Source of the DNA: an uncultured virus (IMG/VR IMGVR_UViG_3300012000_000011)
Taxonomy: Duplodnaviria > Heunggongvirae > Uroviricota > Caudoviricetes
Strand: one strand, 5' to 3'
Length of the DNA stretch: 20,000 nucleotides
Virus record (IMG/VR): IMGVR_UViG_3300012000_000011
Shown here in pieces: positions 1-16,690 of the stretch. The position numbers and the translations under genes were made by a program. How positions within the stretch are numbered: the first letter of the stretch is position 1; the number at the start of each line of letters is the position of its first letter. Below the pieces are notes generated by a model. It saw only the letters and a program-made list of their open reading frames with translations, did no database searches and was not told the origin of the DNA.

Positions 1-2
1 TG

Positions 3-3000
3 TTTTTCAACAGTGCTCAAGTAAAAGTTAACGCAGCTTTTAACAAAATCTTTGATCGTTATCCTTTTGACGGAACTCAAAAAGAAACCGAACTTTTCTA
101 CGATCAAATGACAGGTTATGAAAACTATGTGTTTACAAATCTTCCAAAGCACAAAGGTTATCTTTTCTTTTCTGGCAGTAACATTGGCGATACACCAGTA
201 AGAGGTACGTGGATTACCGTAAAAGATAGCGCAGGCACATCGTTTCCTTTTCTTACAAAGAATCCAAACGGTGCTAGCAGGCTTGATCCAACATCGGGTT
301 CAGTCTCGTTTCAGTTTCAAATCTATGCTGCATCAGGTTCTAACTCAAACCAAATGGTTTTCCAAAAACTCGAAACTTTAAGCGCAACCGAACAACATGG
401 TTTTGGTTGCTTTCTTTCGAGTTCTACGGCCCCTACAGCGAGCTTAACATTCTTTGTTGCCTCTGGGTCAACAAACGTTATGTCTGCCACTGTTGAGCTT
501 GTTAAAGAGTCTTGGACGCCTATTACATTTACTTGGAACAGAACAAGTGGTATCAATCAATTGTTTGGTTATGTAAGTGGTTCATTGGTTGCAACAAGCA
601 GTCAAGTTACAATTCGTAACTTGAATTTTCCAACAGCCAGTTTGCTTATTGGGACAGGAAGTAACATTCTTGCACCATTGTTTACACCAGCAACAACATT
701 CTCTGGAGCTATAGACGAGTTTCGTTATTTCAAGCGTGTTGTTTCTACCGATGAAATGATATCGTATCAAAGCAGCAGCATATATGCTGAACCAGAACTT
801 GCTTTGTACTTTAAGTTTAATGAGCCAAGTGGATCAACTACAAACCTTGTTTTAGATTCTTCTGGTAAAGGTATGCATGGCACATTAAATGGCTATGCGT
901 TAAACATCTTAAAAGTAAGAGATATCAACACAGGTTCTTATATGGGCGAAAGCCCAATGATTTATGAAGACATAAGAAAATGTCCGATATTGTTTCCAGA
1001 TCAACCAGAAGTTGTAACATATCGTGAGAACCTTATTTCTGATGGAGCTTCATACGATTCTTACAACCCAAACATCATAACAAAGCTTGTACCAAAGCAA
1101 TATTTCACATATGGACAAGAACAAGCTGCGTTGGAAACCGAAGAAGGTGAAATCAATGAGTTGCAATATGGTTCTGAACCAAACACAGCAGCTCTTGGCA
1201 GCACACAAACTTTGTTAAGTTTGCTTTATCTTTGGGCAGGATTCTTTGACGAAATCAAATTGTTTCTTGATGCGTTTTCAACATTAAGACACGTTGATTA
1301 TGACCAAAATGACACAGCCCCAGATGCGTTTTTAAAACAACTTGCTGATTTTTACGGCTTGGATCTTCCACCTTTGTTTATTGGTTCAGATGTTAATCAG
1401 TTCATTAACGGAACCAACGTTACACCAACCATTGTTAACAGCGAATATACCCTTCAATATCTACAAAATCAAATCTGGCGTAGGATATTGATTAATGCCA
1501 ACGACATTCTTAAAAGCAAAGGTACAATACACAGCATCAAAGCTTTTTTAAGAGCGGTTGGTATTGATGGAGACAACATTTTTAGATTCAAAGAATATGG
1601 TGGACCAACACAACGTACACTTGATTCTTTGCGTGAGTCAAGAAATGAAATCGGAACAACGTTAAACTTTAAAGCTGGTGGTTATGTAAAAACACCATAT
1701 CTTTCTGGGAGCAGAGTTGAACCGGGATATCCAACACCTGTTGGATCATTTGTTGTCGATCCTAATACTGGACATAACATAGGAACAACAAACGTTAACG
1801 ACGGTTTGTTTACAAGTGGTTCATGGACATACGAAGGTATTTACAACTATTCTGGTACACCTAGTACCAGTTCTGTTCAAAGCCTTGTACGCATTATGTC
1901 TACAGGTTCTAGCAACGTAGAAAATGTGTTAGCTAACTTGTATGCAACAACTGGGTCAGGTGTTACGTTGTACGTCAACCCAAACTCAACTGTTGGAGCA
2001 ACTGCTTTAACAATGAGCATAACAACACCCGACATTATGAACGGTCAAGCTTGGAACATAAGCTTTGGTAGAGTTCGTGGTGATTCTATTAACCAAGTAT
2101 CTTCGTCTTACTTTTTGCGTGTTGGTAGAAACAACCTTGGAAGTATTGTAGAAGAGTACACAACAAGTTCTTATTACGATGATAACTTTGGGTCTAACTC
2201 TGCTAACAATATGTGGCAAGTTATCAATGGAACATATAATGGTTCTGGTTCTTTTCTAGCGTTTGGTAGCGGTAGCACAACAATTGCCACAACCAATCGA
2301 TTTGTTAACGAACATCCGTTACAAACGTTTGATGGTAAGATAACGCAAATGCGTTGGTGGAGCGAAGGATTAACTCTTGACGAATGGAGAGAACACGTAA
2401 GAGACTATAAGAGCCTTGGTGTACAAGATCCGTTGGTTAACTTCAACTTTGAAAACTTTAGAAGCGGATCATTCCAAAAACTTCGTGGTGATTGGAACAC
2501 AGATCAAATTGAGTTGATGACAGACTCAACAGGTTCAATTCAAATCTTTGACTTTTCTCAGCATTATCTACATGCTAGCGGTACTGGATTCCCTGTAACG
2601 TCTTCTGTTATCATCCCAGAACGATTTTACTATTCGTTTATTTCTCCAAACTTTGATGAAGCTGTAACAGATCAAAAGGTTCGTGTAAGAAGCTATCAAA
2701 GCTTGGATTATGTCGATCAAGACGTTGGTTCGTATTCTCAAGCAGCTCCTATATACGAGATTCAACAAGAACAAATACCCGAAGACAATGCTAAGTTCAG
2801 CATTGATTTTTCTATCGTTGACTCACTAAACCAAGACATGATTGGAATGTTTTCTTCGTTGGATATATTCAACAACATTCTTGGAGCCCCAGATATGATG
2901 TTTTCTCCAGATTACCCAGATCTAGAATCATTGCGAGACATATACTTTAACCGACTAACAACTCAGTTAAACATTCGTGGCTTCTTTGAGTTTTATCAAT

Positions 3001-3212
3001 GGTTTAATACCAACATGGGTAAGTTTATTGAACAACTACTGCCAAGAAAAACAAAGTTTAAAGGCATCAACTATGTGATTCAATCTCACATGCTTGAACG
3101 TCCAAAACTTGAATACCACTTCGAAGATATCTACGTGGGCGTCAATAACAGAAATCGTCAAAAAGAAGTGCTTTTACTGCAACTTTTCACCGGTACGTTA
3201 AAAAAATATTAG
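3..3212 (+). CDS. Large virion structural protein, putative baseplate wedge-like protein with two LamG/ConA-like domains (5'-truncated by the window edge)
   Basis: The frame is open from base 3 (FFNSAQVKVNAAFNKIFDRYPFDGTQKETELFYDQ precedes the Met at 108), so the real start is upstream of the window. LamG-like motifs: WTPITFTWN...LLIGTG...FSGAIDEFRYFKR...LALYFKFNE...VLDSSGKGMHGTL, and a second FDGKITQMRWW. The segment APDAFLKQLADFYG...IWRRILINANDILKSKGTIHSIKAFLRAVG resembles the P2 gpI/baseplate wedge 'KGT' signature. Family assignment is by motif recognition only. Confidence 0.7.
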   Translation, partial: FFNSAQVKVNAAFNKIFDRYPFDGTQKETELFYDQMTGYENYVFTNLPKHKGYLFFSGSNIGDTPVRGTWITVKDSAGTSFPFLTKNPNGASRLDPTSGSVSFQFQIYAASGSNSNQMVFQKLETLSATEQHGFGCFLSSSTAPTASLTFFVASGSTNVMSATVELVKESWTPITFTWNRTSGINQLFGYVSGSLVATSSQVTIRNLNFPTASLLIGTGSNILAPLFTPATTFSGAIDEFRYFKRVVSTDEMISYQSSSIYAEPELALYFKFNEPSGSTTNLVLDSSGKGMHGTLNGYALNILKVRDINTGSYMGESPMIYEDIRKCPILFPDQPEVVTYRENLISDGASYDSYNPNIITKLVPKQYFTYGQEQAALETEEGEINELQYGSEPNTAALGSTQTLLSLLYLWAGFFDEIKLFLDAFSTLRHVDYDQNDTAPDAFLKQLADFYGLDLPPLFIGSDVNQFINGTNVTPTIVNSEYTLQYLQNQIWRRILINANDILKSKGTIHSIKAFLRAVGIDGDNIFRFKEYGGPTQRTLDSLRESRNEIGTTLNFKAGGYVKTPYLSGSRVEPGYPTPVGSFVVDPNTGHNIGTTNVNDGLFTSGSWTYEGIYNYSGTPSTSSVQSLVRIMSTGSSNVENVLANLYATTGSGVTLYVNPNSTVGATALTMSITTPDIMNGQAWNISFGRVRGDSINQVSSSYFLRVGRNNLGSIVEEYTTSSYYDDNFGSNSANNMWQVINGTYNGSGSFLAFGSGSTTIATTNRFVNEHPLQTFDGKITQMRWWSEGLTLDEWREHVRDYKSLGVQDPLVNFNFENFRSGSFQKLRGDWNTDQIELMTDSTGSIQIFDFSQHYLHASGTGFPVTSSVIIPERFYYSFISPNFDEAVTDQKVRVRSYQSLDYVDQDVGSYSQAAPIYEIQQEQIPEDNAKFSIDFSIVDSLNQDMIGMFSSLDIFNNILGAPDMMFSPDYPDLESLRDIYFNRLTTQLNIRGFFEFYQWFNTNMGKFIEQLLPRKTKFKGINYVIQSHMLERPKLEYHFEDIYVGVNNRNRQKEVLLLQLFTGTLKKY
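3147..3212 (+). repeat. Direct repeat copy A1: in-place 3' end of gene 1 (NRNRQKEVLLLQLFTGTLKKY*)
   Basis: 53/66 nt and 19/21 aa identical to 4003-4068 by manual alignment, with an exact 21-nt core AGAAATCGTCAAAAAGAAGTG at 3150-3170 and 4006-4026. Confidence 0.95.
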
Positions 3213-3215
3213 CAA

Positions 3216-3251
3216 AAACCTCCCCCACGATATACCTATATTTGGGAGTTT
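3216..3251 (+). promoter_or_regulatory. Putative RNA hairpin occluding the Shine-Dalgarno sequence of HEG1
   Basis: CTCCC (3220-3224) is complementary to GGGAG (3244-3248), flanked by AAAC/GTTT with a one-base bulge. There is an inner ATAT-ACCT-ATAT stem (3230-3241). GGAG lies 5 nt before ATG 3254. Confidence 0.5.
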
Positions 3252-3253
3252 AT

Positions 3254-4003
3254 ATGATTTTTTTGTATGAAGGGAAGAGTAAATCAAGCGGCATCTACCA
3301 TATCCATAACAAACATACTAATCGGTATTATATCGGGCAGTCAAAAGAGTTCAAAGAACGTTGGAAAAATCATTCTTGGAGCTTGTTACAGCAAAAACAA
3401 CAAAACAAATATTTTCAGTCCGATTTTAATCTGTGTTTTTCAGAGCTTGGACATACCGATTTCCTAGAATTTAAGATTATTGAACTACTTCCTGATTCTA
3501 AAAAGGAAGACCGAAACAAACGAGAAGATTGGTGGATATCAGAATATAAGCGGCAAGGTAAACAACTATATAACTTCGTAACGAACAACTGTTCGACCGA
3601 ACATGTCCATTCACATGACCCAGAAACCACAAAACGAAAATTGTCTGATGCCGCTAAAAAAAGATGGCAAAAGCCGGAATACCGTGACAAAGTTTTGGAG
3701 GTATTAAAAAATCGTCCAGCGGAAGGTTATAGACATACCGATGAGGCTAAAGAACGTATAAAAAAAGCTATGTCAACACCAGAAAACAAAAAAAGATTAT
3801 CTGAGTTGTGCCAAACAAAAAAACCACACACAAAAACTCATGATGTAAGATTGGTTTCGCCAGATGGTACAATTTATGGCCCTATAACAAACATGGCGGA
3901 GTTTTGCAGAACCCACGGCATTCATCCACGATCTATGCGACTGCTTCGTAATGGTACGCTTTTGGAAACAAAAGGCTGGAAACTTTTAAAAGAATATATA
4001 TGA
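3254..4003 (+). CDS. GIY-YIG homing endonuclease (free-standing, HEG1)
   Basis: SGIYHIHN...RYYIGQS...KERW...KREDWWI...LYN contains GIY, YIG and Arg/Glu/Asn at the positions expected for I-TevI-type catalytic residues. NUMOD3-like segments HDPETTKRKLS and HTDEAKERIK are followed by a C-terminal LVSPDG...FCRTHGI...KGWK domain. The start is placed at ATG 3254 (GGAG upstream) rather than TTG 3242. Confidence 0.92.
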   Translation: MIFLYEGKSKSSGIYHIHNKHTNRYYIGQSKEFKERWKNHSWSLLQQKQQNKYFQSDFNLCFSELGHTDFLEFKIIELLPDSKKEDRNKREDWWISEYKRQGKQLYNFVTNNCSTEHVHSHDPETTKRKLSDAAKKRWQKPEYRDKVLEVLKNRPAEGYRHTDEAKERIKKAMSTPENKKRLSELCQTKKPHTKTHDVRLVSPDGTIYGPITNMAEFCRTHGIHPRSMRLLRNGTLLETKGWKLLKEYI

Positions 4004-4068
4004 ATAGAAATCGTCAAAAAGAAGTGATTTTGTTGCAACTATTCACTGGTATACTTAAGAAATACTAA
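4000..4068 (+). pseudogene. Displaced duplicate 3' end of gene 1 (copy A2); 22-aa mini-ORF MNRNRQKEVILLQLFTGILKKY*
   Basis: ATG 4000-4002 overlaps the HEG1 stop (ATGA). Codons 4003-4068 match the C-terminus of gene 1, including the stop position. Confidence 0.9.
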
Positions 4069-4080
4069 GGAAAACCAAAC

Positions 4081-5118
4081 ATGCCATACTGGGTTACTGA
4101 TACATCTTTTAAACCGTTTGTTGATATAGCAGATTACTACGGTAGAACAAATCGGTATCTTACTGTATCTGGTGGTATGCCAACCAAAGAAATCGACATA
4201 TATCGTGAAGGTGTTAACCTACGCACAATACAAGACGTTTACAGTTCAAATCAACCAAAGATTATTTTTCAAGATGGTACGCAAGATCGGTTAACTGAAC
4301 CAAACGGAGAAATGTTGCATCAATCTCCGTTTGCAACATATGGTCAAGCTGGAGACTATATCCAATATACTTCCAACACTTTGTTTAATGATTCTCATGT
4401 TGGTATTGAAGGAACCTTGTTGGTTGGTGGAAAAAGAATAAGCAAAACAACAAATTATTTGATTGAATCTGGTCTTATTGTTGAAGGATATTTGAACGCT
4501 GATGACGTTTATCCGATTTATATGAACGGTGGACCACAGTTTTATGAAGAATCGATTATAGAACCGTTTCCTATGCCTTTTCGTCTTGCAACCAACGAAA
4601 GTCCGCAAGAACAAATACGAGGCGTATACGCTTTTCTAGAAGCTGGCAACATTGGTGATGAACGTAGATTCGGTACCGATGTTGTTGAACAAATGGTTTA
4701 TCGTGAAGAACCTAAAATGGTTCGTTCGTTCTTGGAATATGGTGCCGGATATATACTTGTTACAGCAAGCAACGGAACCGTTATTGGTGTAATCGATACA
4801 AGACCTAATGCGATTATGGATCAAACTGTTCAACCAAGAATCGAACCTTGGGTCGATCAGCCTAATGGTGCGTTCTTTCCAGAACTAACCAACACAACAA
4901 ATTTGTTAAGCGTTCAAGTTACTTCTAGCGTTGTTAACTTGAATGGTGAAGTTGTTGGTTCAATTGTTCAACCATTTTTTAGTGAAAATTATGAGATAAG
5001 TGATTCAAACTTACAAACGAGAGATCAAAAAAGTGCAACAGCAGGATTCACATATGGTAACGTTGCTTTGTATGGTACGGACTCAGTTGCATTTGGTGGA
5101 TATTATCGTGGAGCATAA
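4081..5118 (+). CDS. Hypothetical protein, probable virion structural protein (345 aa)
   Basis: Long ORF, co-oriented and tightly packed in the operon, with codon style matching its neighbours. No recognisable catalytic motif. Confidence 0.75.
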   Translation: MPYWVTDTSFKPFVDIADYYGRTNRYLTVSGGMPTKEIDIYREGVNLRTIQDVYSSNQPKIIFQDGTQDRLTEPNGEMLHQSPFATYGQAGDYIQYTSNTLFNDSHVGIEGTLLVGGKRISKTTNYLIESGLIVEGYLNADDVYPIYMNGGPQFYEESIIEPFPMPFRLATNESPQEQIRGVYAFLEAGNIGDERRFGTDVVEQMVYREEPKMVRSFLEYGAGYILVTASNGTVIGVIDTRPNAIMDQTVQPRIEPWVDQPNGAFFPELTNTTNLLSVQVTSSVVNLNGEVVGSIVQPFFSENYEISDSNLQTRDQKSATAGFTYGNVALYGTDSVAFGGYYRGA

Positions 5119-5126
5119 CTAACAAC

Positions 5127-7448
5127 ATGGCAAGAACTCTTAAAGGAACAAGAGCGAGAGGATTACCACCCAAAGTATTATTGTCTCAAAGACAAGATAC
5201 CACTGGTAGCTTTCCAACAATTTGGAGAACATCAAGCGACAACCGCACCGGACGCTATCCTGTTTTCTTTAATGACAACAAAGTTGTTACATTCAATCAA
5301 CCTGTAACAAACGTCGGAATAACAGTAGAAGCAACATATCCAGAATACGAGGAAAAAGTCGTTACAATCGGTTCTCCCGGCAATCCAGTAAATCAATCAA
5401 ATCCTATTATATTTGATTATTCATTTTCTGGAACTCCTTTTGTTGTATTAACAGAGTTAACTCCTAACGCAAACACTCCTATTGTTAATGCGTTTATCGA
5501 TCCGTTATTCGTTGGAGGGATGACGATTAAGTTCTCTGCACCATTTGAAGGAACAATCGTTTACCGAGCGTTATATCAATCTTCACCGGGAAATCCTGTT
5601 AACGTTTTAAGATCGCCAAGGTTTGTAAATCAATATTCTTTAGCTGTTGTAAATAATGCAGAGTTCGATACCAATAATATTCTTGGCAATCCAAACACTG
5701 CCGATATTACTTTTTCTGATTTTGGTTCTGTTCCAACAGAAAACTATGTAACTTTTTATGATTTTTACACAAACAATCAAGCAAACATATCTTCTAGTAT
5801 TTCAGTTGTAACAAATACATCTGCTCAAGTAACTGGAAGTGCTGCTGGTGATGTTGTTTTGTATTACATGGGTGTTGGTACTTCAACCGCTTCTATCGAT
5901 GTAAGTGGTATTGTATATCCTTTAGTAATGACTCCGCAAGCTATTAATGCCGATCTATCTCCAGAAGCTAAATCAGATTTATACAAGCAACCATTCTTTT
6001 CTGGTTCTGAGATTGTTAATCAACCTATTGTTGCTTCTGGGAGTATGAAGAAAAACGTATCAGATATCTTTGTTACGTTTACACCGGGACAAGATATCGA
6101 ACCTTTTCAAGACTTTGCAAATCCAGAAGTTGATGCAAAAATATCGAACGTAACAAGTTCGAATTATCGGTTTTTTGCAACAGGTAGCTTGGTTGAAACA
6201 ACAGGTTTAGGTTTTCAACAACCTGTTTGGAGCAAAAACAAGATAGAAATTGATATAACTCCAGCAGCCGATCAAACAATAACGATGTATCAAAGCGCAA
6301 GCGTTGGAAGTTATCCAATGTATTATTGGAACTTTGCTACGAAACAATACGAAGGCAAAGGAAACGGTAAAGGGATACAAAGCGTACCAAACACATTGAA
6401 CGGTCTTAAAACGTTTTTAGAGGAACAAACGTTTGGTTTCGCTTCAAGTATGGATGTTGGAGGTTTACCAACAGGATTTTCGGAAGGAATATTTAACGTC
6501 AAGGGAAGACAAATAAGCGACTTTGGTTTTCCATATCATCCAAAATTTAAACCAACAACAAATCAACAACTCAATATCGGAAACCATATATCAGAGCCAT
6601 TTTTACTTGAAAAAGTCGTGATTGAGTTTTATGGTAAACTTAAACCGCTAGCATCAGGTTCATTTGGAACCACCGCAATATGGACTTTTTTTCTTTTAAA
6701 CAATCGTCCATCTTTGAGTGGATCTATTTCACCTTCACAGACTATTGTTTATCAAACCAATCCCGGTGCGATCACCCCGCCGCTTTCCTTCACAACTAGC
6801 TCTTTATTAGATTCAACCGTGTTAGATGTTGTGGATCATATGCAAATATGCGTATCAAACAGCTTTGATACCAAAGGATATTTGCAAAGAGAGCTTTTGC
6901 TTAATTCTGGGGAGTTGGTTGGTCCAATGAACGGTCCACGACAATTTGTTTTATCCTCTAGCGTTAAAACCAGTATAGCTTATGAAGCGGGAGCTTATAC
7001 AGCATATTCCGGTAGTTTTGGTAATGAGTCGGGATTCGTTGAAAGCTTAGATTATTCTGGAAGAAATCAATTAAATCAAGCAAACGGTAGAGATTGGTCT
7101 TCTACCTTTTCAAGTCCTGTTGTCGCAGGAACCGCTTCGTATTTTATAGCCAGTTACAACTATACCATTAACGTGAACGAAACATATACAAAACAAAATC
7201 CTTATGTTTTGCTACCAACGGATAAGTTGGTTTTCGGCGTACAACTTCCTTGGGCCACGGGACTTGGTGGTACGCAATGGAACGATGATTCAACATCAGT
7301 TGATTTTTCTCAGTACGGCATCAACAAAATCATTCTTTACGGTTCAACATTAAGAGTTAATCCAGAAACAAATCAACTTGAAGAATATCATGATACGTTA
7401 AATCAGCTTCTTTCTTCAAACAGTATTCATGAAGTGATTGGAGAATAG
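5127..7448 (+). CDS. Hypothetical virion structural protein (773 aa), beta-rich, possibly tail/baseplate-associated
   Basis: Long S/T/G/N-rich ORF starting 8 nt after the previous stop, with an internal SPGNPVN repeat and two segments resembling small tail-fibre/H-lectin-like beta domains. Function is inferred from context. Confidence 0.7.
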   Translation: MARTLKGTRARGLPPKVLLSQRQDTTGSFPTIWRTSSDNRTGRYPVFFNDNKVVTFNQPVTNVGITVEATYPEYEEKVVTIGSPGNPVNQSNPIIFDYSFSGTPFVVLTELTPNANTPIVNAFIDPLFVGGMTIKFSAPFEGTIVYRALYQSSPGNPVNVLRSPRFVNQYSLAVVNNAEFDTNNILGNPNTADITFSDFGSVPTENYVTFYDFYTNNQANISSSISVVTNTSAQVTGSAAGDVVLYYMGVGTSTASIDVSGIVYPLVMTPQAINADLSPEAKSDLYKQPFFSGSEIVNQPIVASGSMKKNVSDIFVTFTPGQDIEPFQDFANPEVDAKISNVTSSNYRFFATGSLVETTGLGFQQPVWSKNKIEIDITPAADQTITMYQSASVGSYPMYYWNFATKQYEGKGNGKGIQSVPNTLNGLKTFLEEQTFGFASSMDVGGLPTGFSEGIFNVKGRQISDFGFPYHPKFKPTTNQQLNIGNHISEPFLLEKVVIEFYGKLKPLASGSFGTTAIWTFFLLNNRPSLSGSISPSQTIVYQTNPGAITPPLSFTTSSLLDSTVLDVVDHMQICVSNSFDTKGYLQRELLLNSGELVGPMNGPRQFVLSSSVKTSIAYEAGAYTAYSGSFGNESGFVESLDYSGRNQLNQANGRDWSSTFSSPVVAGTASYFIASYNYTINVNETYTKQNPYVLLPTDKLVFGVQLPWATGLGGTQWNDDSTSVDFSQYGINKIILYGSTLRVNPETNQLEEYHDTLNQLLSSNSIHEVIGE

Positions 7449-7456
7449 TTACCATC

Positions 7457-8662
7457 ATGCCAATCTACGATGTAGAAAATAGATTCTCCTACTACAAAAG
7501 CTATTCAGATAACATTCTTGTTGGGCCGCCAAAACCAAAAATAGGTGATACAACATGGCTTAGAGCAGTTTCTGGAAGCGTTGTAAGTGGTTCAGAAGAA
7601 TATAAAGCCGCAACATTTCTTTCGGATTATGTGTTTGAATTTAACAACAAATTTTTTAGATCTGGTGAAGTTAGATATTTGAAGTTATCATCTATAAACC
7701 AACAAATAGAAGATTCGATTGCTCCTTCTCCATTGCAATTGTGTACAACTGGCACATATGCTTCTGGTGTTTTGGGCCAAAAAAATGGATCATTTACTCC
7801 CGAACTTTCAAAAGCAGCAACGTTGTTGTTTGCGATTGATAGAAAAGTTATAACGGGATCAAATGGCGTTTACTCAGGAAAAAGAGTTAATAATCTTGAA
7901 TGGTTGGACAGTTATCCTTATGAGAAAAAATATTCGTATGTTGATCGGGGTATCATTACTTTTATCCCAGTAACCACACGTTATGAGATATATCCAAAGG
8001 GTCAGACTCCGGGTTTAGATGAACTTTTATGGTTCGATGCGGCGGGTGTAGGGGAAAGCTTCACCACATCGAGTCTTCCATATGTTATATATTTTACATC
8101 GATAGCTACAACTGGCATAAAATATTACAACGAATTCGCTGAAAGAACCGGAATAAACGGAACATTTTCTGATGCCGACTCTTCGCTTTCGTTTACTAGC
8201 AACAATATATCGTTAACAGCGAAAACGGTTTTTGGAATTAATCCACAAGCGATAGAAACACCAAATTCTTTGAGCGTGGTAGGTTCGGTTATAAACTTTT
8301 GCAGTGGTGTTTATATTGAAGGTTGGAAATATGGATTATACAACGGACTACCAACCAACTTTTCTTGTGTGTTCAGACAAAACCATTACGGTCAACCAAT
8401 GGATATGCTTGAAGGTAGACCATATACAAAAACATACAACAACCCTTTGATTGGCGGGCCTATGGACGAAGGTGGAGGTATTAACTTTATCTCTGGTAGT
8501 GCTTTGTCCGGTGAAAGCAATAACTGGTTAACTGCATCGATATATCAATCTAAAAACGTTGCAGCGGCTTATGTAGTTAATCCATATGGGTCTGGAATAT
8601 TCGATAAAGAATACCGTGCTTCTCAACCGTGGCATGATGACGATCCAAGAGTAGGAACATAA
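7457..8662 (+). CDS. Hypothetical protein, probable virion structural protein (401 aa)
   Basis: Long ORF starting 8 nt after the previous stop; S/G/T-rich with several SGS/TGS motifs like its neighbours. Confidence 0.72.
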   Translation: MPIYDVENRFSYYKSYSDNILVGPPKPKIGDTTWLRAVSGSVVSGSEEYKAATFLSDYVFEFNNKFFRSGEVRYLKLSSINQQIEDSIAPSPLQLCTTGTYASGVLGQKNGSFTPELSKAATLLFAIDRKVITGSNGVYSGKRVNNLEWLDSYPYEKKYSYVDRGIITFIPVTTRYEIYPKGQTPGLDELLWFDAAGVGESFTTSSLPYVIYFTSIATTGIKYYNEFAERTGINGTFSDADSSLSFTSNNISLTAKTVFGINPQAIETPNSLSVVGSVINFCSGVYIEGWKYGLYNGLPTNFSCVFRQNHYGQPMDMLEGRPYTKTYNNPLIGGPMDEGGGINFISGSALSGESNNWLTASIYQSKNVAAAYVVNPYGSGIFDKEYRASQPWHDDDPRVGT

Positions 8663-8663
8663 C

Positions 8664-8729
8664 ATGGGTTTACTTGATCCGAAAACACGTAAGAAAATAC
8701 TTGACGATCATATATATTCATCGAGATGA
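8664..8729 (+). pseudogene. Displaced 5' end of the 9493 gene (copy B1); 21-aa mini-ORF MGLLDPKTRKKILDDHIYSSR*
   Basis: The first 9 codons match MGLLSPKTR at 9493 (8/9 aa, 18/27 nt, exact AAAACACGT at 8682-8690 and 9511-9519). It starts 1 nt after the upstream stop in a TAACATGG context, identical to the junction at 13001. Its TGA (8727-8729) overlaps the HEG2 ATG (8726-8728). Confidence 0.85.
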
Positions 8730-9493
8730 AACAGAGTGGAATATATAAGATAGTCAACAATATTAATGGCCGTTGCTATATTGGATCTGCTAAAAATATA
8801 AAGCGGCGGTGGCAACATCACATTTGTAGTCTTAAAAAACAAAGACATTCTACCCCATTTTTACAAGCCGATTACAACAAGTGCGGTCAAAACTGCTTAA
8901 ATTTTTTGATTTTAGAAGAGTGCGTTGAAGAAGCGATCATCGAAAGAGAGCAATATTGGTTGAACATATACTATGATGATCAAAACCAGTGTTATAATCT
9001 TAGAAAGATTGCCGAATCAAATAGAGGCTACAAAGCTTCTGATGCAACAAGGCAAAAGATGAGAGAAGCCAAAAAAGGGTTCAGACCATCTCCTGCAACC
9101 ATAGAAGGATGCATAAAATACCATTCTGGTAGAAAAAAAGATGAAAACGAAAGAAAAGCTATGAGCGATGGCTGGATCAAAAAGTTATCCAGTTTAACAG
9201 ATGAAGAACGAAAATCACATTCGAATATTTGTAGCGAGAGAAGTAAAAGAGCATGGACAGATCCAGTCATAAGACAAAAATTGCTAGAAGCTAGGGCGAA
9301 AGAGCGGCCTTATAGAAGAAAAGCAGTCATCCAATATGATCTAGAAGGTAAGATCGTGGCTGAGTATGATTCGGTTAATATCGCATCAGAAAAAACCGGG
9401 ATAAGTTTCAATTTGATCAAAAAAGTTATATTGGGTTATGAGGGCAGAACGCAAACTCATGGGTACGTATTTAAATACAAGGAATCTATATAA
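8726..9493 (+). CDS. GIY-YIG homing endonuclease with NUMOD3- and NUMOD1-like DNA-binding modules (free-standing, HEG2)
   Basis: SGIYKIVN...RCYIGSA...KRRW...EREQYWL...CYN has intact GIY-YIG catalytic positions. GYKASDATRQKMREAKKG is NUMOD3-like, and KAVIQYDLEGKIVAEYDSVNIASEKTGI is a NUMOD1/IENR1-like HTH. Confidence 0.93.
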   Translation: MKQSGIYKIVNNINGRCYIGSAKNIKRRWQHHICSLKKQRHSTPFLQADYNKCGQNCLNFLILEECVEEAIIEREQYWLNIYYDDQNQCYNLRKIAESNRGYKASDATRQKMREAKKGFRPSPATIEGCIKYHSGRKKDENERKAMSDGWIKKLSSLTDEERKSHSNICSERSKRAWTDPVIRQKLLEARAKERPYRRKAVIQYDLEGKIVAEYDSVNIASEKTGISFNLIKKVILGYEGRTQTHGYVFKYKESI

Positions 9494-10551
9494 TGGGACT
9501 CTTATCACCCAAAACACGTTTGCTGGATACGATTATTACCGACGAAGGTAGAAAACAATTAGGCACAGGACGTTTTATTCCTGCGTTTTATTCTTTTTCT
9601 GACGCTGGTGCGGTATATTCCCCATTAGACACCTACGTCACAGGAACCGTACCAGATTCAAGCGTTGCAACTCTTGTAACGTTTGAAGCATTTCCTTTGC
9701 CACAAGATCAAGTTTCGTTTGAAGCGGACGATAGTGGTGGTTTAAGAGTGTTTGGAAACAACAACTATTTTACTAGCTCTCAAGGCACGGTTCGTGTTAT
9801 AAGCGGTCAACTTATAAAAGGTTGGGAAAACGGAACACCAGAGATATTATCAAGTTCGGCAACGTTTGCTTCTGTTGCTTCCACAGTTCTTGGAGACAAC
9901 ACAAACAACTTTCGTAAGTTGATGATTTTGAAAAGTCCAGACTTGCTTTATACCAACCGTGACGAGTTTAAAATCAACAACGACGAAATATCGTTTCGAA
10001 TAACAGACAACACAACTTTGGCTGGTGGTGTTACAACCGGCAACCTAGAAGCCACAGAAAACCTTTATTTTGATCGTAGACTTTCTCACATCGATAACTT
10101 TAGCTTGTTGCCTCCAGTTAACAAATCTCAACAACCTATAGGGAACTATGCTGGAGCTATCAACGGTAACCGAAGAATTCTTACGTTCCAAGATTTGAAA
10201 AACGAGTTTCAAAACATTGTTGTAGCTAATGGAACAACAACTCAAAGAACTGAACAACAACGTTCAACTGTTATCTTTAGCGAAACAACAATAACAAACA
10301 GAATCGTTGGTCAAATGTTTGAAATGGCGAACGGTAAAGTAACCAAGTTGGATGTTGTGGATTTCGGTGTGTTTCTTGTGTCGAAAAACTCACCTTTGCT
10401 TCCATTGTTTCCCGATGCCATACCAACACCATTAAATCCCGATCTTGTAACAGCAACAACAAGAGTTCATGTTTACTTTGTTGGAAAAGTTATAACTGAT
10501 GCCACAGGCAACGACAAGTTCATCAATATGTTTTCTTTAGTGTTTCAATGA
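9493..10551 (+). CDS. Hypothetical protein, probable virion structural protein (352 aa)
   Basis: Long ORF whose start overlaps the HEG2 stop (TAATG), preceded by AAGGA inside the HEG2 3' end. Confidence 0.75.
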   Translation: MGLLSPKTRLLDTIITDEGRKQLGTGRFIPAFYSFSDAGAVYSPLDTYVTGTVPDSSVATLVTFEAFPLPQDQVSFEADDSGGLRVFGNNNYFTSSQGTVRVISGQLIKGWENGTPEILSSSATFASVASTVLGDNTNNFRKLMILKSPDLLYTNRDEFKINNDEISFRITDNTTLAGGVTTGNLEATENLYFDRRLSHIDNFSLLPPVNKSQQPIGNYAGAINGNRRILTFQDLKNEFQNIVVANGTTTQRTEQQRSTVIFSETTITNRIVGQMFEMANGKVTKLDVVDFGVFLVSKNSPLLPLFPDAIPTPLNPDLVTATTRVHVYFVGKVITDATGNDKFINMFSLVFQ

Positions 10552-10602
10552 CGAACCATTCTGTTTTGATGAAAACACTATATATGAATAGGTTTAAAAG
10601 CT

Positions 10603-12999
10603 GTGGAAGTAAAACTAAACACTGTTCAAGTTATAACTGCTAATGACGATTTTGCTTCTCTGGAAAAAGCAAGTTTAACGCATTACTTGTATAGGTTTAG
10701 CTTGTCTGTGAGTAAAACCGAAACAAAAAACTCATACGCAACAAAGTTGTTGGTGCGTGCATACACAGAAAATCCTAAAAACGCAGTGCCGTTAACTGTG
10801 TTTAATCAAGATCAACCAACGTTGAACATTTTAAACCAAAACGCAAAACAACTAATAAACAACATTCAAAAAAGATCGTTTTCAATTACAAATGCGATCA
10901 TAACAACAAGAAACAACATTCTTGCTCAACAAGAATATGACTTGAATGGTTTGGTTGAAAAGTTTAACAGCGGTATTGGATATTCAATTGTTACCAACGA
11001 TCCTAAACCTACTGTAAAAAACAAAATCTATGATGCTGTTAACACAATCGATCAAAAGCCATTAAACGAAGATCGATCTATTGCACAACTCAGCAAAGAG
11101 CTGTTGAACGAGTTTAAAACCGATCCTGCGGATTCTATCAAACGCATATACTCTGCTAAAACCGCATATGAAACCAACAATGGTTTAGCTTTTTTCAGCG
11201 GACAAAATCGAGCAAACAAAGTAGAAGATATGATTGCGGCTAGTTTGTTAACAACAAACAATCCAGATTTAACAGAAGCAACTCGTTTGCAAGCTTATAA
11301 CATTTCAGAGCGAGATGTAATCACAATACATCCAGAACAATTGTTTCCAGCAGAAGCTATTGGCACAAGTAACTTTTACTTGATGTTTTCAATCTATGAC
11401 ACCAAAAACAACTTGGTGCAAGAGTTTGTTAAGTTCGTTAATCATAAAACCAACTTAACACGTTTTCAACGTGCTGTTATACCTCCAGATTTTTCTATGA
11501 CGAAACTAACTGGAGGACAGTTAACTGTGTCTGTCAAGCAAAAAGATCCATATGGCACAGGTGTAAAAATCTATAAGTCGGTATATAACCCAAGCGCAAA
11601 AACAGAACTTGTAACACAAGACATAGTTGGCAGCTTTGATTTACCACCGGGAGAAGCTCGTATATTCAACATTCAAAACACTGATGTTGGTTTACTTTTG
11701 TTTCGTGCATTAAGCTATAATGCAACCTCTGATGTTAGCAGCGATTTTGCTAGCCAAGTTGTTGAAGTTCAAGCAAGCGAAGTAACAACAACAAAAGCAA
11801 GCGTGTTTGTAAGCTTGCATCCAGAATACAACCGTCAAGGTCTTAACCTTATTGTTTCTGATATCCCAGATGATATCGCTTTTATCGAGTTGTTTAAAAC
11901 CAACTTAACTAGCGATCCATATACAGAAACATTAATCACAACGTTTTTTGTTGGTGGACAGGGAAGCAACGCAAGTTATGCTTATTTCGATTCAAGCTTA
12001 GATCAAACAAAAGCATATCGATATCGTTGTGCGTTGGTTGATATAAAAGGTCAGCGTTATGATTCGTCTGGAATGGTTGAACTCGTTTATCGTCCGCAAA
12101 CACAAGATTATGCTGTTTCGAACTATACTACACCAACAGTAACGCCTGTTCAAACACCGGGAAGCAGCATTCAATACTATGATGTTGCCTTTGATGTTTC
12201 TTATGCCATAACAAACAAACTTGAAGATAACGTTAAACAGTTTCTTATCAATCAAGGTTTGATTGAATATTTCGGTGGTGATATCAAACGAGAACGTCTT
12301 AAAGATTTACTTGTAACCAAAGTAGAACTTCGTGATTTGCAAACCAACGACAAGTTTTTAATGGGTTACATTGACAACACATACTTGCAAAGCACAACAA
12401 GGTTTGGTTTACTCAATCGTAGTTCACAATACCTATATGAGCTAACAACATACGTTAGAAATCCTGCAACACTTTTGCAAGCAATAGAGCTAACAGGTTC
12501 TTCTACTGCAAGAACAAACTCAAAACTATCTCCTCCAACATACACTTATAATCCATTCAATCTCAACAATCCATATGGTTTGCAAACTGGTACCAATCCA
12601 AAGAAAAGCGGCTCTGAGTTCGTTCTTCAATACGGTTTAGATCAACTAGAGTTTGGTGACATAACAGGCATCGATTACATTAAAGTAGACTTGAAACCAC
12701 CAACACCTAGCATCAACAACTTGAAAGCAAACGTTTTCAACAGCAAATCAATCGACTTGGTATGGAGTGTTAACGGCGATCAAACGCAAATAAGTCATTT
12801 CATTATTCGCAGACAAAATGTTATAACAGGTAAATTGGATTTGATTGGCAAGGCACACGGAATCAATACACAAAACAACTATTTGTTTAGCGACGATATC
12901 AGGTATACCGACACAGGGGTATATAAGTACATTATAACAATGCAATATTTTAACTTGAACTTAAGTCCAGATTACGATAGCAACGAAGTGGTGATATAA
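10603..12999 (+). CDS. Hypothetical protein with Fn3/Ig-like beta-sandwich domains (798 aa)
   Basis: GTG start. The C-terminal SINNLKANVFNSKSIDLVWSVNG...ISHFIIRR...YLFSDD...YKYIIT and the internal IELFKT...YAYFDSSLDQTKAYRYRCALVD follow the Fn3 pattern. Confidence 0.7.
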   Translation: MEVKLNTVQVITANDDFASLEKASLTHYLYRFSLSVSKTETKNSYATKLLVRAYTENPKNAVPLTVFNQDQPTLNILNQNAKQLINNIQKRSFSITNAIITTRNNILAQQEYDLNGLVEKFNSGIGYSIVTNDPKPTVKNKIYDAVNTIDQKPLNEDRSIAQLSKELLNEFKTDPADSIKRIYSAKTAYETNNGLAFFSGQNRANKVEDMIAASLLTTNNPDLTEATRLQAYNISERDVITIHPEQLFPAEAIGTSNFYLMFSIYDTKNNLVQEFVKFVNHKTNLTRFQRAVIPPDFSMTKLTGGQLTVSVKQKDPYGTGVKIYKSVYNPSAKTELVTQDIVGSFDLPPGEARIFNIQNTDVGLLLFRALSYNATSDVSSDFASQVVEVQASEVTTTKASVFVSLHPEYNRQGLNLIVSDIPDDIAFIELFKTNLTSDPYTETLITTFFVGGQGSNASYAYFDSSLDQTKAYRYRCALVDIKGQRYDSSGMVELVYRPQTQDYAVSNYTTPTVTPVQTPGSSIQYYDVAFDVSYAITNKLEDNVKQFLINQGLIEYFGGDIKRERLKDLLVTKVELRDLQTNDKFLMGYIDNTYLQSTTRFGLLNRSSQYLYELTTYVRNPATLLQAIELTGSSTARTNSKLSPPTYTYNPFNLNNPYGLQTGTNPKKSGSEFVLQYGLDQLEFGDITGIDYIKVDLKPPTPSINNLKANVFNSKSIDLVWSVNGDQTQISHFIIRRQNVITGKLDLIGKAHGINTQNNYLFSDDIRYTDTGVYKYIITMQYFNLNLSPDYDSNEVVI

Positions 13000-13000
13000 C

Positions 13001-16000
13001 ATGGCCGCAATACGCAACGGAATTCCTGTAAGAGTCGCTCAAACAAACATTCAACCTGCTCAAACACCAATATTGGTACCAACTGTATCGTTGACTGTAG
13101 CTGCTCCTGCTTCTTCCCCCACTACAATTTCTTCAGTTTCCGCAGCTACAACCATTTCACCAATCATCAACGTTCCAATTACAACACCAACAGTTCAACC
13201 AACGCAAACAACAGCAAACATTTTGTTGAACAATACACTAACAATTCCAACAACTGCCCCAATAGTTTCAACTATCCTTAGTCCTATTGTAGCGTTAACT
13301 GGAAGAATAAATCCCGCCGTTGTTGCTCCAGTTATCTTTAGACCAAAACCAAATCCGATTAAGCTACTAACAAGCAAAGATATGGTTGAAGAAACGTTAT
13401 CATTAGACACATACACAATTGTTAACGGTCAACCTGTGTTGGATGTTGCTAGCTTGCGTAGCGAAATCATATCGTTGGTTGATTTTAGACCAGTTTATAA
13501 TCCATATCTTAACCGTAGTTTTTCAAACTTTGGTGTTTACGTTAACGACTTGTATCAATCAAGCTTGGTTAGTGATACGTTGAGAAAATATCTTTTGTTG
13601 AATCAAGCAACTGCTACACCAGATTTCAACGTTACATTGAATTCTATATCAACAAGAATAAGAGAAGACATAGCTAAATCTAAAAACACCATTAGATCGC
13701 TTGATGGTTTCATTCAAAAAATCAAAGAAATCAACAACGTTTTAGACGTTAAAAGCAATTTGGATGATGTTTACGCATTTAGAACTCCTATGCTTGGATT
13801 GCGAGATTTCGTAACGCAACGTATGTTGTTTTCCGAGCAATCATACAACATATTTTCAGACACAAAAGTATTGTATCAATTGTTGTTTGACCTTAGCGGT
13901 ATCTTGGAAAAATGTTCGTTCAACCTTATATCAAATTTTACAGATGCTGCTAGGTCTTCGTATGTCAGTACACCAATAACGGACAAACAACGAAACATAC
14001 AAGATTCAATAAGCATAGATTTAACTTATGGTGACAACCTACGTTATACACCAGATGCTATAAGAAGCAAGTACATCACGGACTATGTAACGTTTAACGG
14101 AATCGTTAACGTTTTACCGAACTCATATCAAGATCGTTTTACTTTTGTTCTCAACCTTTTGTCTAAAGAATTAAGAGTATCAAAAGGGCTAGGTAAATAC
14201 AACTTACCAGAAGCCAGTTTTTTTGGTTTTAGCAATCAAGGAAATCCTTTTGATAACGTTATTGGTAGCATACCATCAGACATATTTGTTTCGCCTACTG
14301 GAAACAATAGCTTGTCAACGTTGTTATATCTTAGAACAAGCACACAAAACGCTGTTGTGTTGCCTTTTGAGGCTCGTCAGGTTGCTGGAGATGGAGAAAC
14401 AGTATTTGTACCGGGAACAAACTATTTCTCGGACGGTATCTTAAATGGTGACTTTTCAACTTATAACAGTTATCGTGAAGTTTTCTCAAACCGAATCACT
14501 CAAGCACGAAACGTTTTTGACAAATATCTTTTGCGGCAAGCTGCTTTCGACAACACATCGATTGCATTGCAACCCAGCGAAATGCTTAAATCCGCATTGA
14601 GATATTACGCAAATTCTCAAGACCTCATACGCCAAAACAACAATGATGCAACCAACACATTAAGCTTTGTTTTGTTTTTGTTAGGTAATTCTGACCCAAA
14701 AATCAAGTTTGAAGTTTATAAGTTGTTGCTTTTGATTGCTGTGTATGATACAAGAAAAACAGTAACAACGAACTTTACTCAAACAGATAAGTTTAGAGAC
14801 TTGTTGCTGGGTGAACTAACTCAACAAAGAATTCAAGGTTTCTCAGAAAACTTAACAGAAGAAAACATACCAAAACTTATTGATAACCAAATTGCAATTG
14901 TTAGACAACTAGTTTTGAATAACGTAGCTCCGCTTCCACCTTCGAATAACAAAGTGGGAGTAGGCTTGTCAAACAACAAAAGTGCTGAACAAATAAAGAA
15001 CCGACAAATTCTACAGCTTGGTGGTAACGTACCTGCACCTCCATCAAACAACGTTAATCCAAACAACAACATTGCTCAAGTACAAATTCAACAATTTTCG
15101 AATTTGATTTATTCGTTAAGGTCAACCGACAACTTGTTTAAAAACGTTTTGGATATGTGCAAACAATTGTTTACAGCTTGTAGCACAAACGAACAAACGT
15201 ATCATTTGTTGGCTGGATCGTCTGCAACAAGATATCATGGTTTAACTTTGTCTGGTTTTGTGTTGCTTACGTTTGAAATGTTTTCTGCTCTTGTAGCTCA
15301 GTTTTCTACAACAAACATATCGTACAATTTAGTTAACGACCAAACAACGAAACTGTCGGCGGTTCAATATATTCAAGCAACGTTCAACGTTCAAGCTTTG
15401 TCAGATATATCCACGAATATTCGTAACTTTTTGCGTGGTAGTTCTTACTATAGCCCAATCATATCAGGTTATCAACAAAAGCTTGATGAAGAAGATAAAA
15501 TCATAGACAACATTGTGCGGTTCTTTGAGCGATTAAACAATCGGTTTACGAACATTTCAACACCATCCAGCAAAGAAGCAACAATTCTTAGCGAGATAAA
15601 CACAAGCAATCCAAACAGCTTAAGCACAACAAGAACGGCAAAAAACATATTGCAATCGATTGTTAACAAGCAAGCGGTATACAACCCAACGAACAATCGA
15701 GCTTTGGATTTTTATCTTCCTGCTGGTAAGGCTGTAAGTGATAGAAACTGGGAAGCAGTTAAAACTGCTTTGTTTCAACCAGAGTTCGTTGGTAACTCAA
15801 AACAAAAAATTGTTACTGTTGGTATACCATATGGTTTCGTTAGATCGGCTTTGGGTGCCAAGCTTAACAAAAACGAAGTATACAACGGTAAGCTACAAGA
15901 AAGCACAAGCGATTTAATCAACGTAAAGATTTACAAGCTCGATAAAAACGATGACGGAATCGTGTTTAAACCGCAACAATTTAAATTCGACTTGTCTTTG

Positions 16001-16690
16001 TTTGCCAGAGGATTCGATGCATATACCATAAACGAAATATCCAGATCAAACTATTACGATTTAAGAGATACGTTTCAATTTTATGATTTTGACGAAGACC
16101 TACCATTCGATCAAGTAACTGCAAAAACGTTTCAACAATTTGTTGCAACCGATCCTTATTATCGTGTATCAACGGAACGTCAAGGGTTGTGTTTTGAAGC
16201 AGTAGAAAACTTGTATCGAAGCTTTGTGTTTGACTTGTATCTTCATATGGTTACAGGCTTGAACGTCAGCGAAGAAACGTTTGTGTCTTATCTGGAAAGC
16301 GAGACAACAACGTTTACGAATGAGATGGCAAAGATTCCCTTGGGCACAGCAGACCTAACAAAAGTTAAGTTCATGACACCCGAGTATCGTGAGTTGCTAA
16401 ACGCTTTTAAAAACAATCAAGACGACACAAAGATGATGTTAACTCTTTGCAACGACATAACAAAAACAGTGTTTCGACAAAAACAATATGATCGAACATA
16501 TAACATCATGTTCGACATAGATAAGTTTGCGGTTGATACCAACGCAATGAGTCAAAACAAAGAAGGAAATGCATTGTTGCAACAACTAACGAATCAAGGT
16601 CGATTGTATCAATCCAACGGCGAAACATATAAAACCTCTGACGATCTTGTGTTTGATTCATACTTTATTAACGTGGAGATCATTCAATGA
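13001..16690 (+). CDS. Large hypothetical protein (1229 aa) with Pro/Thr/Ile/Val-rich N-terminus and a predominantly helical-looking body
   Basis: Long ORF starting 1 nt after the previous stop; its stop overlaps the next start (ATGA 16687-16690). No family recognised. Confidence 0.75.
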   Translation: MAAIRNGIPVRVAQTNIQPAQTPILVPTVSLTVAAPASSPTTISSVSAATTISPIINVPITTPTVQPTQTTANILLNNTLTIPTTAPIVSTILSPIVALTGRINPAVVAPVIFRPKPNPIKLLTSKDMVEETLSLDTYTIVNGQPVLDVASLRSEIISLVDFRPVYNPYLNRSFSNFGVYVNDLYQSSLVSDTLRKYLLLNQATATPDFNVTLNSISTRIREDIAKSKNTIRSLDGFIQKIKEINNVLDVKSNLDDVYAFRTPMLGLRDFVTQRMLFSEQSYNIFSDTKVLYQLLFDLSGILEKCSFNLISNFTDAARSSYVSTPITDKQRNIQDSISIDLTYGDNLRYTPDAIRSKYITDYVTFNGIVNVLPNSYQDRFTFVLNLLSKELRVSKGLGKYNLPEASFFGFSNQGNPFDNVIGSIPSDIFVSPTGNNSLSTLLYLRTSTQNAVVLPFEARQVAGDGETVFVPGTNYFSDGILNGDFSTYNSYREVFSNRITQARNVFDKYLLRQAAFDNTSIALQPSEMLKSALRYYANSQDLIRQNNNDATNTLSFVLFLLGNSDPKIKFEVYKLLLLIAVYDTRKTVTTNFTQTDKFRDLLLGELTQQRIQGFSENLTEENIPKLIDNQIAIVRQLVLNNVAPLPPSNNKVGVGLSNNKSAEQIKNRQILQLGGNVPAPPSNNVNPNNNIAQVQIQQFSNLIYSLRSTDNLFKNVLDMCKQLFTACSTNEQTYHLLAGSSATRYHGLTLSGFVLLTFEMFSALVAQFSTTNISYNLVNDQTTKLSAVQYIQATFNVQALSDISTNIRNFLRGSSYYSPIISGYQQKLDEEDKIIDNIVRFFERLNNRFTNISTPSSKEATILSEINTSNPNSLSTTRTAKNILQSIVNKQAVYNPTNNRALDFYLPAGKAVSDRNWEAVKTALFQPEFVGNSKQKIVTVGIPYGFVRSALGAKLNKNEVYNGKLQESTSDLINVKIYKLDKNDDGIVFKPQQFKFDLSLFARGFDAYTINEISRSNYYDLRDTFQFYDFDEDLPFDQVTAKTFQQFVATDPYYRVSTERQGLCFEAVENLYRSFVFDLYLHMVTGLNVSEETFVSYLESETTTFTNEMAKIPLGTADLTKVKFMTPEYRELLNAFKNNQDDTKMMLTLCNDITKTVFRQKQYDRTYNIMFDIDKFAVDTNAMSQNKEGNALLQQLTNQGRLYQSNGETYKTSDDLVFDSYFINVEIIQ

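Follow-up and report, generated by a model that had tools for sequence, protein, structure and literature searches.

Introduction

Endonuclease genes that carry a spare end for the gene into which they insert are known from mitochondrial DNA (mtDNA), where mobile endonuclease open reading frames (mORFs) have produced gene hybrids in atp6 of Allomyces macrogynus and in atp6, atp9, cox2, and nad3 of Glomus sp. (PMC3630166, in the accessible portion of the text). In bacteriophages, by comparison, the free-standing endonuclease genes seg and mob of T4-type phages lie between genes or split genes, as the excerpted review of T4 homing describes and as had been assumed in part in an earlier first-pass annotation of the DNA studied here, which placed them typically between genes; the insertions that split a gene include mobE in nrdA of phage Aeh1, mobA in gene 39/60 of T4, and seg in gene 43 of phage 25 (PMC2988022). 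According to the same excerpt, one-sided homing with illegitimate, microhomology-type junctions has been established experimentally in T4 (PMC2988022). Here, we analyzed a stretch of 20,000 nucleotides (nt; hereafter, the window) from an uncultured virus of the Caudoviricetes (IMG/VR record IMGVR_UViG_3300012000_000011), in which a GIY-YIG homing endonuclease gene, designated HEG1 (positions 3254–4003), is flanked by two diverged copies of the 3′ end of the preceding gene (gene 1, positions 3–3212) and is followed by gene 2 (positions 4081–5118). We consider it probable (roughly 85%) that positions 3121–4005 constitute a mobile cassette within the 3′ end of gene 1, composed of a gene end from a donor lineage and the GIY-YIG gene with its own leader.

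The layout of the locus is that of the mitochondrial mORFs, and the analogy with Allomyces atp6 drawn in the first-pass annotation therefore holds, as far as the available part of the mitochondrial report extends (PMC3630166). In both cases, the endonuclease open reading frame (ORF) is preceded by an inserted, diverged C-terminus, which completes the gene, and followed by the stranded native C-terminus; the latter shows few or no differences from that of the closest element-free relative, whereas the inserted copy is divergent (here, 65 and 54 of 66 nt, respectively, are identical to the relative L002, described below). One of the Glomus mORFs, that of atp9, also belongs to the GIY-YIG family (PMC3630166, same portion). 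The present locus differs from the mORFs in that its host is a structural-type operon of a bacteriophage rather than mtDNA, that HEG1 forms a cistron of its own, preceded by its own leader, in contrast to the described atp6 and nad3 mORFs, which are in phase with the gene, and that the duplicated part amounts to only 21 codons. Furthermore, element-free and occupied alleles occur here in single samples, and a second lineage has the stranded copy at a recombination boundary.

Compared with the phage systems, as far as the excerpted review covers them (PMC2988022), HEG1 shares its enzyme family and an I-TevI-like catalytic domain with the seg (GIY-YIG) genes of T4-type phages, and it shares with the “intronless homing” of seg and mob (HNH) the features of a promoter-less cassette in a polycistronic unit, presence/absence polymorphism, and co-conversion of the flanks. 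Unlike seg and mob, however, HEG1 lies inside a coding region, where the replacement end that it carries makes it harmless. Like the gene-splitting insertions, it is a free-standing endonuclease gene within a conserved phage gene that has not lost its function; those insertions yield two polypeptides that reassemble, whereas gene 1 is not divided, and the part that has been displaced is superfluous. The locus also resembles the one-sided homing of T4 in having homology on one side and, as the junction at 4003–4005 looks, a non-homologous or microhomology join on the other, but the T4 case is a laboratory system based on the td intron, and the passage concerned reports no duplication of a gene end. 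The term “duplicat” is absent from that review (0 occurrences; PMC2988022). Within the full-text literature covered, including the available parts of PMC10448857, PMC8351571, PMC3706429, PMC12724721, and PMC8778798, no description of this layout in a phage was found; most subscription journals fall outside that coverage.

A GIY-YIG gene between two copies of a gene end

The last 21 codons and the TAG stop of gene 1 (3147–3212, plus strand) recur at 4003–4068 (plus strand), at the end of HEG1, and the coordinates given for this duplication in the first-pass annotation were borne out. A codon-by-codon comparison likewise reproduced the reported differences between the copies: 13 of 66 nt, comprising two amino acid (aa) changes (L/I at codon 9 and T/I at codon 17), eight synonymous codon swaps, and TAG versus TAA. 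A repeat search paired 3147–3220 with 4003–4076 (74 nt, 80% identity), so that the likeness continues for 8 nt beyond the stops, and one 21-nt word is exactly the same in both copies. Aligned locally with each other, the 200-nt flanks of the HEG1 ORF gave a best score of 36.5, whereas 200 shuffles averaged 8.7 and never exceeded 13.0; the repeat is far above chance.

When 12 random substitutions were simulated over the 63 coding nt, the mean outcome was 8 aa changes, and two or fewer changes occurred in 0 of 20,000 trials. The synonymous bias that had been claimed therefore stands for the repeat itself, whereas a purely synonymous recoding does not, because three replacements (W/F, L/V, and E/V) lie upstream of the repeat. 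The bias is attributable to separate evolution: each copy diverged as the functioning end of a gene, and only later did the two come together.

We regard the upstream copy as the functional, foreign replacement end of gene 1 and the downstream copy as its stranded resident end. The latter forms a 22-codon mini-ORF that includes an ATG at 4000–4002; this ATG is in frame with the downstream copy and overlaps the TGA of HEG1 (4001–4003) in the sequence ATGA (4000–4003). The 12-nt gap reported between the downstream copy and the next ORF was found at 4069–4080, and it is tight, like most junctions of the operon, the others in the ORF list being 8, 8, 1, and 51 nt, together with overlaps of 1 and 4 nt.

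Endonuclease-free relatives and the polarity of the insertion

A search of IMG/VR yielded 13 related contigs, 12 of which were informative in that they show the junction of gene 1 and gene 2 (the contig L007 ends too early). HEG1 was present in one of these (L001) and absent from the other 11, in which the stop of gene 1 and the ATG of gene 2 are separated by 1 to 34 nt. Two copies of the gene end were found in none of the 11 HEG-less contigs; their presence there had been named in the first-pass annotation as one of the findings that would refute an insertion.

The closest HEG-less contig, L002, has 3 mismatches over window positions 1–3120 and then 8 within 3121–3146. Of the 66 nt of its gene 1 end, 65 are those of the downstream copy, with the sole mismatch at 4005, and 12 are mismatched to the upstream copy. 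Its 12-nt spacer and the first 51 nt of its gene 2 are identical to those of the window. L002 is thus the predicted HEG-less relative, in which gene 1 ends with sequence of the 4003–4068 type and abuts gene 2 via the same 12-nt spacer. The window therefore corresponds to an L002-type genome with a foreign tract, in which the upstream copy is foreign and the downstream copy resident, and the comparison supports the earlier proposition that the endonuclease gene was inserted in the 3′ end of the gene together with a foreign replacement end, leaving the resident end stranded.

By this alignment, the foreign tract would span about 3121 to 4005 (about 885 base pairs). Its left limit lies between 2509 and 3121 and is no more finely placed than that; the 52 nt that precede 3121 show conservation from lineage to lineage. 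Upstream of the repeat, a donor-type tract at 3121–3146 (plus strand) differs from L002 at 8 of 26 nt and encodes FEDIYVGVN, compared with WEDIYLGEN in L002, which accounts for the three replacements mentioned above. Judged from these comparisons, gene 1 is now a hybrid, being resident to about 3120 and donor-type from 3121 to its stop.

Two further contigs bear on the source of the foreign end. Window positions 3132–3187 constitute an exact 56-nt match to the gene 1 end of the HEG-less contig L014, and positions 3213–3227, the 15 nt after the upstream stop, match the start of the unusually long 34-nt spacer between gene 1 and gene 2 in the contig L004. On the strength of these two matches, both the replacement end and the spacer behind it come from another lineage, where they occur naturally. 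The segment 3213–3253 (plus strand) accordingly consists of donor-type spacer, represented by its first 15 nt, and of the HEG1 leader. This arrangement suggests that HEG1 first sat in an L004-like spacer as an ordinary free-standing gene.

The gene 1 end of L014 is itself a mosaic, being of the upstream-copy type as far as 3187 and L002-like for the last 25 nt, and the spacer that follows starts like that of L002. This mosaic could be the donor state or a relative of it, or it could be the footprint of a loss of the endonuclease gene by recombination between the two copies.

These comparisons also bear on two other accounts of the duplication. Replication slippage can give direct repeats flanking an insert, and an open frame has been kept in both copies, as might be expected if the gene end had undergone a local tandem duplication followed by divergence in place, with an endonuclease that arrived later or had no part in the event. 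Divergence in place could not produce the observed gradient, however: the window differs from L002 at 3 of 3,120 nt upstream, but at 8 of 26 nt immediately before the copy and at 12 of 66 nt within it. In addition, the upstream copy matches the L014 end over 56 nt and the nucleotides that follow match the L004 spacer over 15 nt, and none of the 11 HEG-less contigs has two copies. A tandem duplication is therefore extremely unlikely.

The reverse polarity, in which the upstream copy would be native and the endonuclease gene and downstream copy would derive from an L002-like phage, deserves consideration because two copies alone need an outgroup to give a direction and because L014 shows the upstream-type allele as a native end. 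Nevertheless, the window equals L002 on both sides of 3121–4005 (3 mismatches in 3,120 nt on the left; an identical spacer and start of gene 2 on the right), so that this polarity would need two exchanges, as opposed to one insertion into an L002-like genome. Moreover, L002-type genomes are HEG-less, both in L002 itself and in two records (8 and 14) of the sequencing run X6 described below. We consider the reverse polarity very unlikely.

Independent assemblies and a second recipient lineage

To these contigs we added Logan contigs, which are contigs and not reads, of four further sequencing runs (X6, X7, X9, and X10) from four other studies. They bear on the possibility, raised in the first-pass annotation, that the window is an assembly chimera of two co-occurring strains and that the two gene-end copies never lay on one molecule. 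Conditions that could favor such an error do exist: X6 and X10 each contain both HEG-plus and HEG-less strains, an exact 21-nt word is present in both copies, the 52 nt preceding 3121 show high conservation, and L001, a separate HEG-plus contig with 3 single-nucleotide differences from the window (two of them common to L002), breaks inside HEG1. Both junctions are nevertheless bridged by contigs from other assemblies and from the four further runs. The contig L024, from another sample, equals window 3022–4132 with 0 mismatches and spans both junctions, and X7 records 19 and 21 together bridge both with 0 differences. The right junction is bridged by L024, X7 record 21, X6 record 13 (HEG-plus), and the 27.9-kilobase (kb) X9 record 24, and the left side by L001, L024, X7 record 19, and X10 record 4. 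Furthermore, a mis-join in the assembly graph swaps what follows a shared word, and it cannot make an endonuclease end that abuts a gene-end copy unless some genome has one. An assembly chimera is unlikely, to the point of being scarcely credible.

The same runs showed both alleles side by side. In X6, the HEG-less L002-type allele is represented by record 8, which has exactly the 9 expected differences up to 3175, and by record 14, which begins at 4006, the position from which the sequence is common to the contigs of both alleles. In X10, the HEG-less allele appears as a loose end before 4003 that equals the sequence of the HEG-less contig L003, while HEG-plus records 4 and 5 cover both sides. 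The two alleles thus co-occur in two runs, and the HEG1 locus shows presence/absence polymorphism among close relatives with conversion of the flanks (L002 compared with the window and L001; X6 and X10).

The cassette was also found in a second lineage, represented in X9 and X10. X9 record 24 (27,925 nt) is colinear with window 2619–4254 and spans the whole region. Relative to the window, this lineage has, in X10, 77 differences in 2619–3133 and 28 in 4034–4254, but about 7–8 in 3134–4033; in other words, it is 13–15% diverged in both flanking genes, whereas the cassette is roughly 99% identical. For L003, the corresponding numbers of mismatches are 81 (2619–3133) and 28 (4034–4254), and 36 of the 40 listed variants of the second lineage are common to L003. 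Contigs break at 3104–3133 and at about 4033–4062, and the HEG-plus contig already has lineage-type bases at 3116, 3122, 4041, and 4051. The cassette tract in this second recipient would therefore extend from about 3134 to about 4033, with its right boundary inside the stranded copy. By the contig tables, the cassette moves between lineages as a unit.

The endonuclease

The ORF between the copies was confirmed as a GIY-YIG gene, with a Pfam PF01541 score of 30.4 bits (cut-off, 22.6). HEG1 encodes 249 aa on the plus strand and matches the homing-endonuclease families PHROG 314, 7168, 5123, and 19446. The catalytic domain of I-TevI (1MK0/1LN0) also matches HEG1 (E = 3.4e−07), with the GIY, YIG, Arg, and Glu positions aligned. 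In the alignment with 1MK0, the HEG1 motifs are sGIYhI, YIG, eRWKnH, and the Glu in krEdwWI, which faces an Ala of that chain; this Ala is presumably the E75A mutation of I-TevI. By its motifs, the enzyme looks intact. Distant homologues align to residues 4–246, 1–248, and 5–251 of the 253-aa ORF that begins with TTG, and judged from these alignments, HEG1 is full length relative to its homologues. The Pfam scan showed no DNA-binding domain in HEG1, and residues 198–248 match the C-terminal part of PHROG 2081. Among viral and metagenome contigs, the relatives of HEG1 were confined to identical copies and homologues of no more than 49% identity, the best of the latter being a partial match at 49%; none occurred in genome_contigs.

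The ORF start required a correction: the listed TTG at 3242 is replaced by the likely ATG at 3254, which the sequence GGGAG at 3244–3248 precedes by 5 nt. A CUCCC/GGGAG hairpin that would hide this Shine-Dalgarno sequence was predicted at −10.9 kcal/mol, which is not better than shuffles (z = −0.32). Promoter-like sites were no commoner than in shuffles, and a terminator search found none. A contig of run X10 that is otherwise unrelated to the window (more than 255 nt unlike on both sides) matches only positions 3229–3266, with a 2-nt deletion at 3244. Since these positions comprise the HEG1 leader and first codons, this match suggests that a leader/start module is shared with other loci.

We also considered an endonuclease encoded in a group I intron. 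This candidate was rejected, as no Rfam intron family was detected in 2800–4400 (E up to 1) and the upstream copy ends in a stop; the Rfam search revealed no other RNA family there either.

Proposed mechanism

We propose that the cassette has two parts: a donor copy of the last ~30 codons of gene 1 with its own stop, which would keep gene 1 intact, and the GIY-YIG gene with its own leader, the resident end being displaced downstream, where it would retain the native junction with gene 2. In the first step, HEG1 would have been free-standing in the spacer between gene 1 and gene 2 of an L004/L014-like donor and its product would have cleaved gene 1 of HEG-less genomes close to the position corresponding to 3135–3150. 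In the second step, the cut genome would have been repaired by homologous invasion on the left side and by an illegitimate join on the right, where the 3′ end of the endonuclease gene was connected to the broken gene end; it is this right-hand join that would have created the duplication. As a result, HEG1 would now occupy its own cut site, flanked by homologous sequence: gene 1 on the left and the stranded end plus gene 2 on the right. From then on, it could home in the manner of an intron-encoded endonuclease, with very short conversion tracts, and both the recoded upstream copy and the truncated downstream copy would be without an intact target.

The placement of the cut follows from the conversion tracts, which in the two recipients end within tens of bases on either side of the equivalent of 3135–3150; HEG1 probably cuts near that position, as these tract ends indicate. 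Recipients of the L002 and L003 types share one 12-mer at 3135–3146, at which the occupied allele differs at 6 of 12 positions, and the stranded copy is entirely without this half. The changes that abolish the target probably lie in the segment 3121–3146. The original junction at 4003–4005 has at most a few bases of homology and would fit the one-sided illegitimate break repair of T4 intron homing, as the excerpted review presents it (PMC2988022). The boundary seen in the second lineage suggests that the stranded end acts as the right homology arm for homing.

Several points weigh against this reconstruction. L014 has the donor-type allele without an endonuclease, and the allele alone is no proof of a transfer mediated by the endonuclease gene. 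A donor with HEG1 in a plain intergenic position was not found in viral contigs, metagenome contigs, or genome_contigs. Three of the further runs are lake or freshwater metagenomes, and some of the runs may belong to related campaigns. The boundaries in the second lineage derive from contig tables (in which 254 differences are unlisted) and from contig breaks, not from readable sequence. Finally, the ends of the conversion tracts are the only basis for placing the cut and for proposing that the occupied allele is immune.

The locus provides an unusually clean natural before/after pair for the harmless entry of a free-standing homing endonuclease gene into a coding region: outside the cassette, the empty allele differs from the occupied one by about 0.1%, both were found in the same lake samples, and there is a second recipient lineage for comparison. 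Between them, the ends of the conversion tracts in the two recipients confine the likely cut site to a few tens of bases. The locus also shows that the spare gene end, a device known from mitochondria, is in use in phages. There, it can leave short stretches of foreign sequence and small orphan ORFs within structural genes, and these would be misread by annotators and pangenome tools.

A second GIY-YIG gene with a stranded gene start

The window contains a second GIY-YIG gene, HEG2 (8726–9493), which is 28% identical to HEG1 and has a stranded gene start upstream. Pfam places a NUMOD1 domain in it just below the threshold, and its relatives are at most 44% identical. The 27 nt at 8664–8690 (MGLLDPKTR) copy the first 9 codons of the gene at 9493–10551 (MGLLSPKTR), with 19 of 27 nt identical. 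This copy lies directly after the stop of the gene at 7457–8662, exactly at the position that the ATG of the following gene occupies in the HEG2-less contigs L013, L014, L016, and L017, and over its 27 nt it agrees with the real gene starts of L010 and L011 at 23 and 24 positions, respectively (counted by hand). Taken alone, the 27-nt copy was not significant at the nucleotide level in the flank-repeat test. It opens a 21-codon mini-ORF (8664–8729, stop included), the TGA of which overlaps the ATG of HEG2, and the stop of HEG2 in turn overlaps the ATG at 9493. This arrangement, as read from the alignments, shows HEG2 to be the apparent mirror image of the HEG1 case, with a stranded gene start instead of an end. 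A near-identical HEG2-less contig was not found with the gene at 9493–10551 as the query, and either copy of the pair may be the foreign one.

Both GIY-YIG genes in the window therefore show stranded pieces, one at the 3′ end of a gene and the other at the 5′ end of a gene. We suggest tentatively, and at somewhat less than even odds, that such stranded ends are working parts of a composite mobile element rather than scars, and that this “intron without splicing” is a regular lifestyle of GIY-YIG genes here. A target duplication that flanks the element itself would turn an endonuclease that cuts at a distance into an element at its own cut site with two homology arms, and mini-ORFs that overlap the stop or start of the endonuclease gene (ATGA) would keep translation flowing through the operon.

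The latter point leads to another explanation, according to which the stranded end is kept for expression, either instead of or besides recombination, with the mini-ORF handing terminating ribosomes to gene 2. The ATGA overlap at 4000–4003 speaks for such a role, the stranded start at HEG2 is also a mini-ORF with overlaps at both the ATG of HEG2 and the ATG of the next gene, and most junctions of the operon are tight. The argument is, however, a post hoc one built on two cases; the copies are too young (about ≤1% divergence between the cassette-bearing lineages) for selection on the mini-ORF to be visible, and gene 2 retains its own Shine-Dalgarno-like sequence, AAGGA, anyway. A role in expression therefore appears rather unlikely.

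Flank-to-flank repeats were also sought at 9 other GIY-YIG loci (L029 was left out, its flanks being too short), and none was clear. The flanks of a GIY-YIG ORF in L004 (979–1004 and 2061–2086) gave a marginal 26-nt match that looks like a shared non-coding motif. At the end of the window, on the minus strand, a third homing-endonuclease-like ORF (18495–20000) has matches to DUF7487 and to the HNH-type PHROGs 3339 and 559; it converges on the gene at 16687–18498, overlaps its end by 4 nt, and has a frame that is open at the window end.

Gene 1, gene 2, and the operon

Gene 1 (plus strand) encodes more than 1,034 aa, its frame being open at the window start, and it has a Laminin_G_3 (PF13385), or ConA-like, domain (E = 8.8e−09 in Pfam). 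The label “baseplate-like” given to it in the first-pass annotation could not be upheld, as Laminin_G_3 was the only domain found. An atlas search with gene 1 returned only viral “hypothetical protein” clusters carrying Laminin_G_3, and a sequence search of the PDB returned a weak pentraxin-type match to this domain only, with nothing for three other large ORFs. Gene 2 (plus strand, 345 aa), which is separated from the stranded end by the native 12-nt spacer (plus strand), matches no family in Pfam or PHROGs, and the atlas search with gene 2 gave no usable match. For the flanking genes, Pfam and PHROGs gave nothing beyond Laminin_G_3, and AlphaFold models made with their function in view had mean predicted local distance difference test (pLDDT) values of 29.6 and 27.0, derived from shallow alignments of 9 and 7 sequences, respectively.

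Positions 108–18498 of the window hold nine large, tightly packed ORFs on the plus strand, of 345 to 1,229 aa, and apart from the one Laminin_G_3 domain, sequence searches of Pfam, PHROGs, and the PDB gave no match for them. Neither megablast nor tblastn with the gene 1 end as the query detected a relative in the GenBank phage collection. The host of the cassette is an uncultured freshwater phage, and the relatives of the nine large ORFs were found only in uncultured viral contigs from lake or freshwater samples, which reach up to 260 kb in length.

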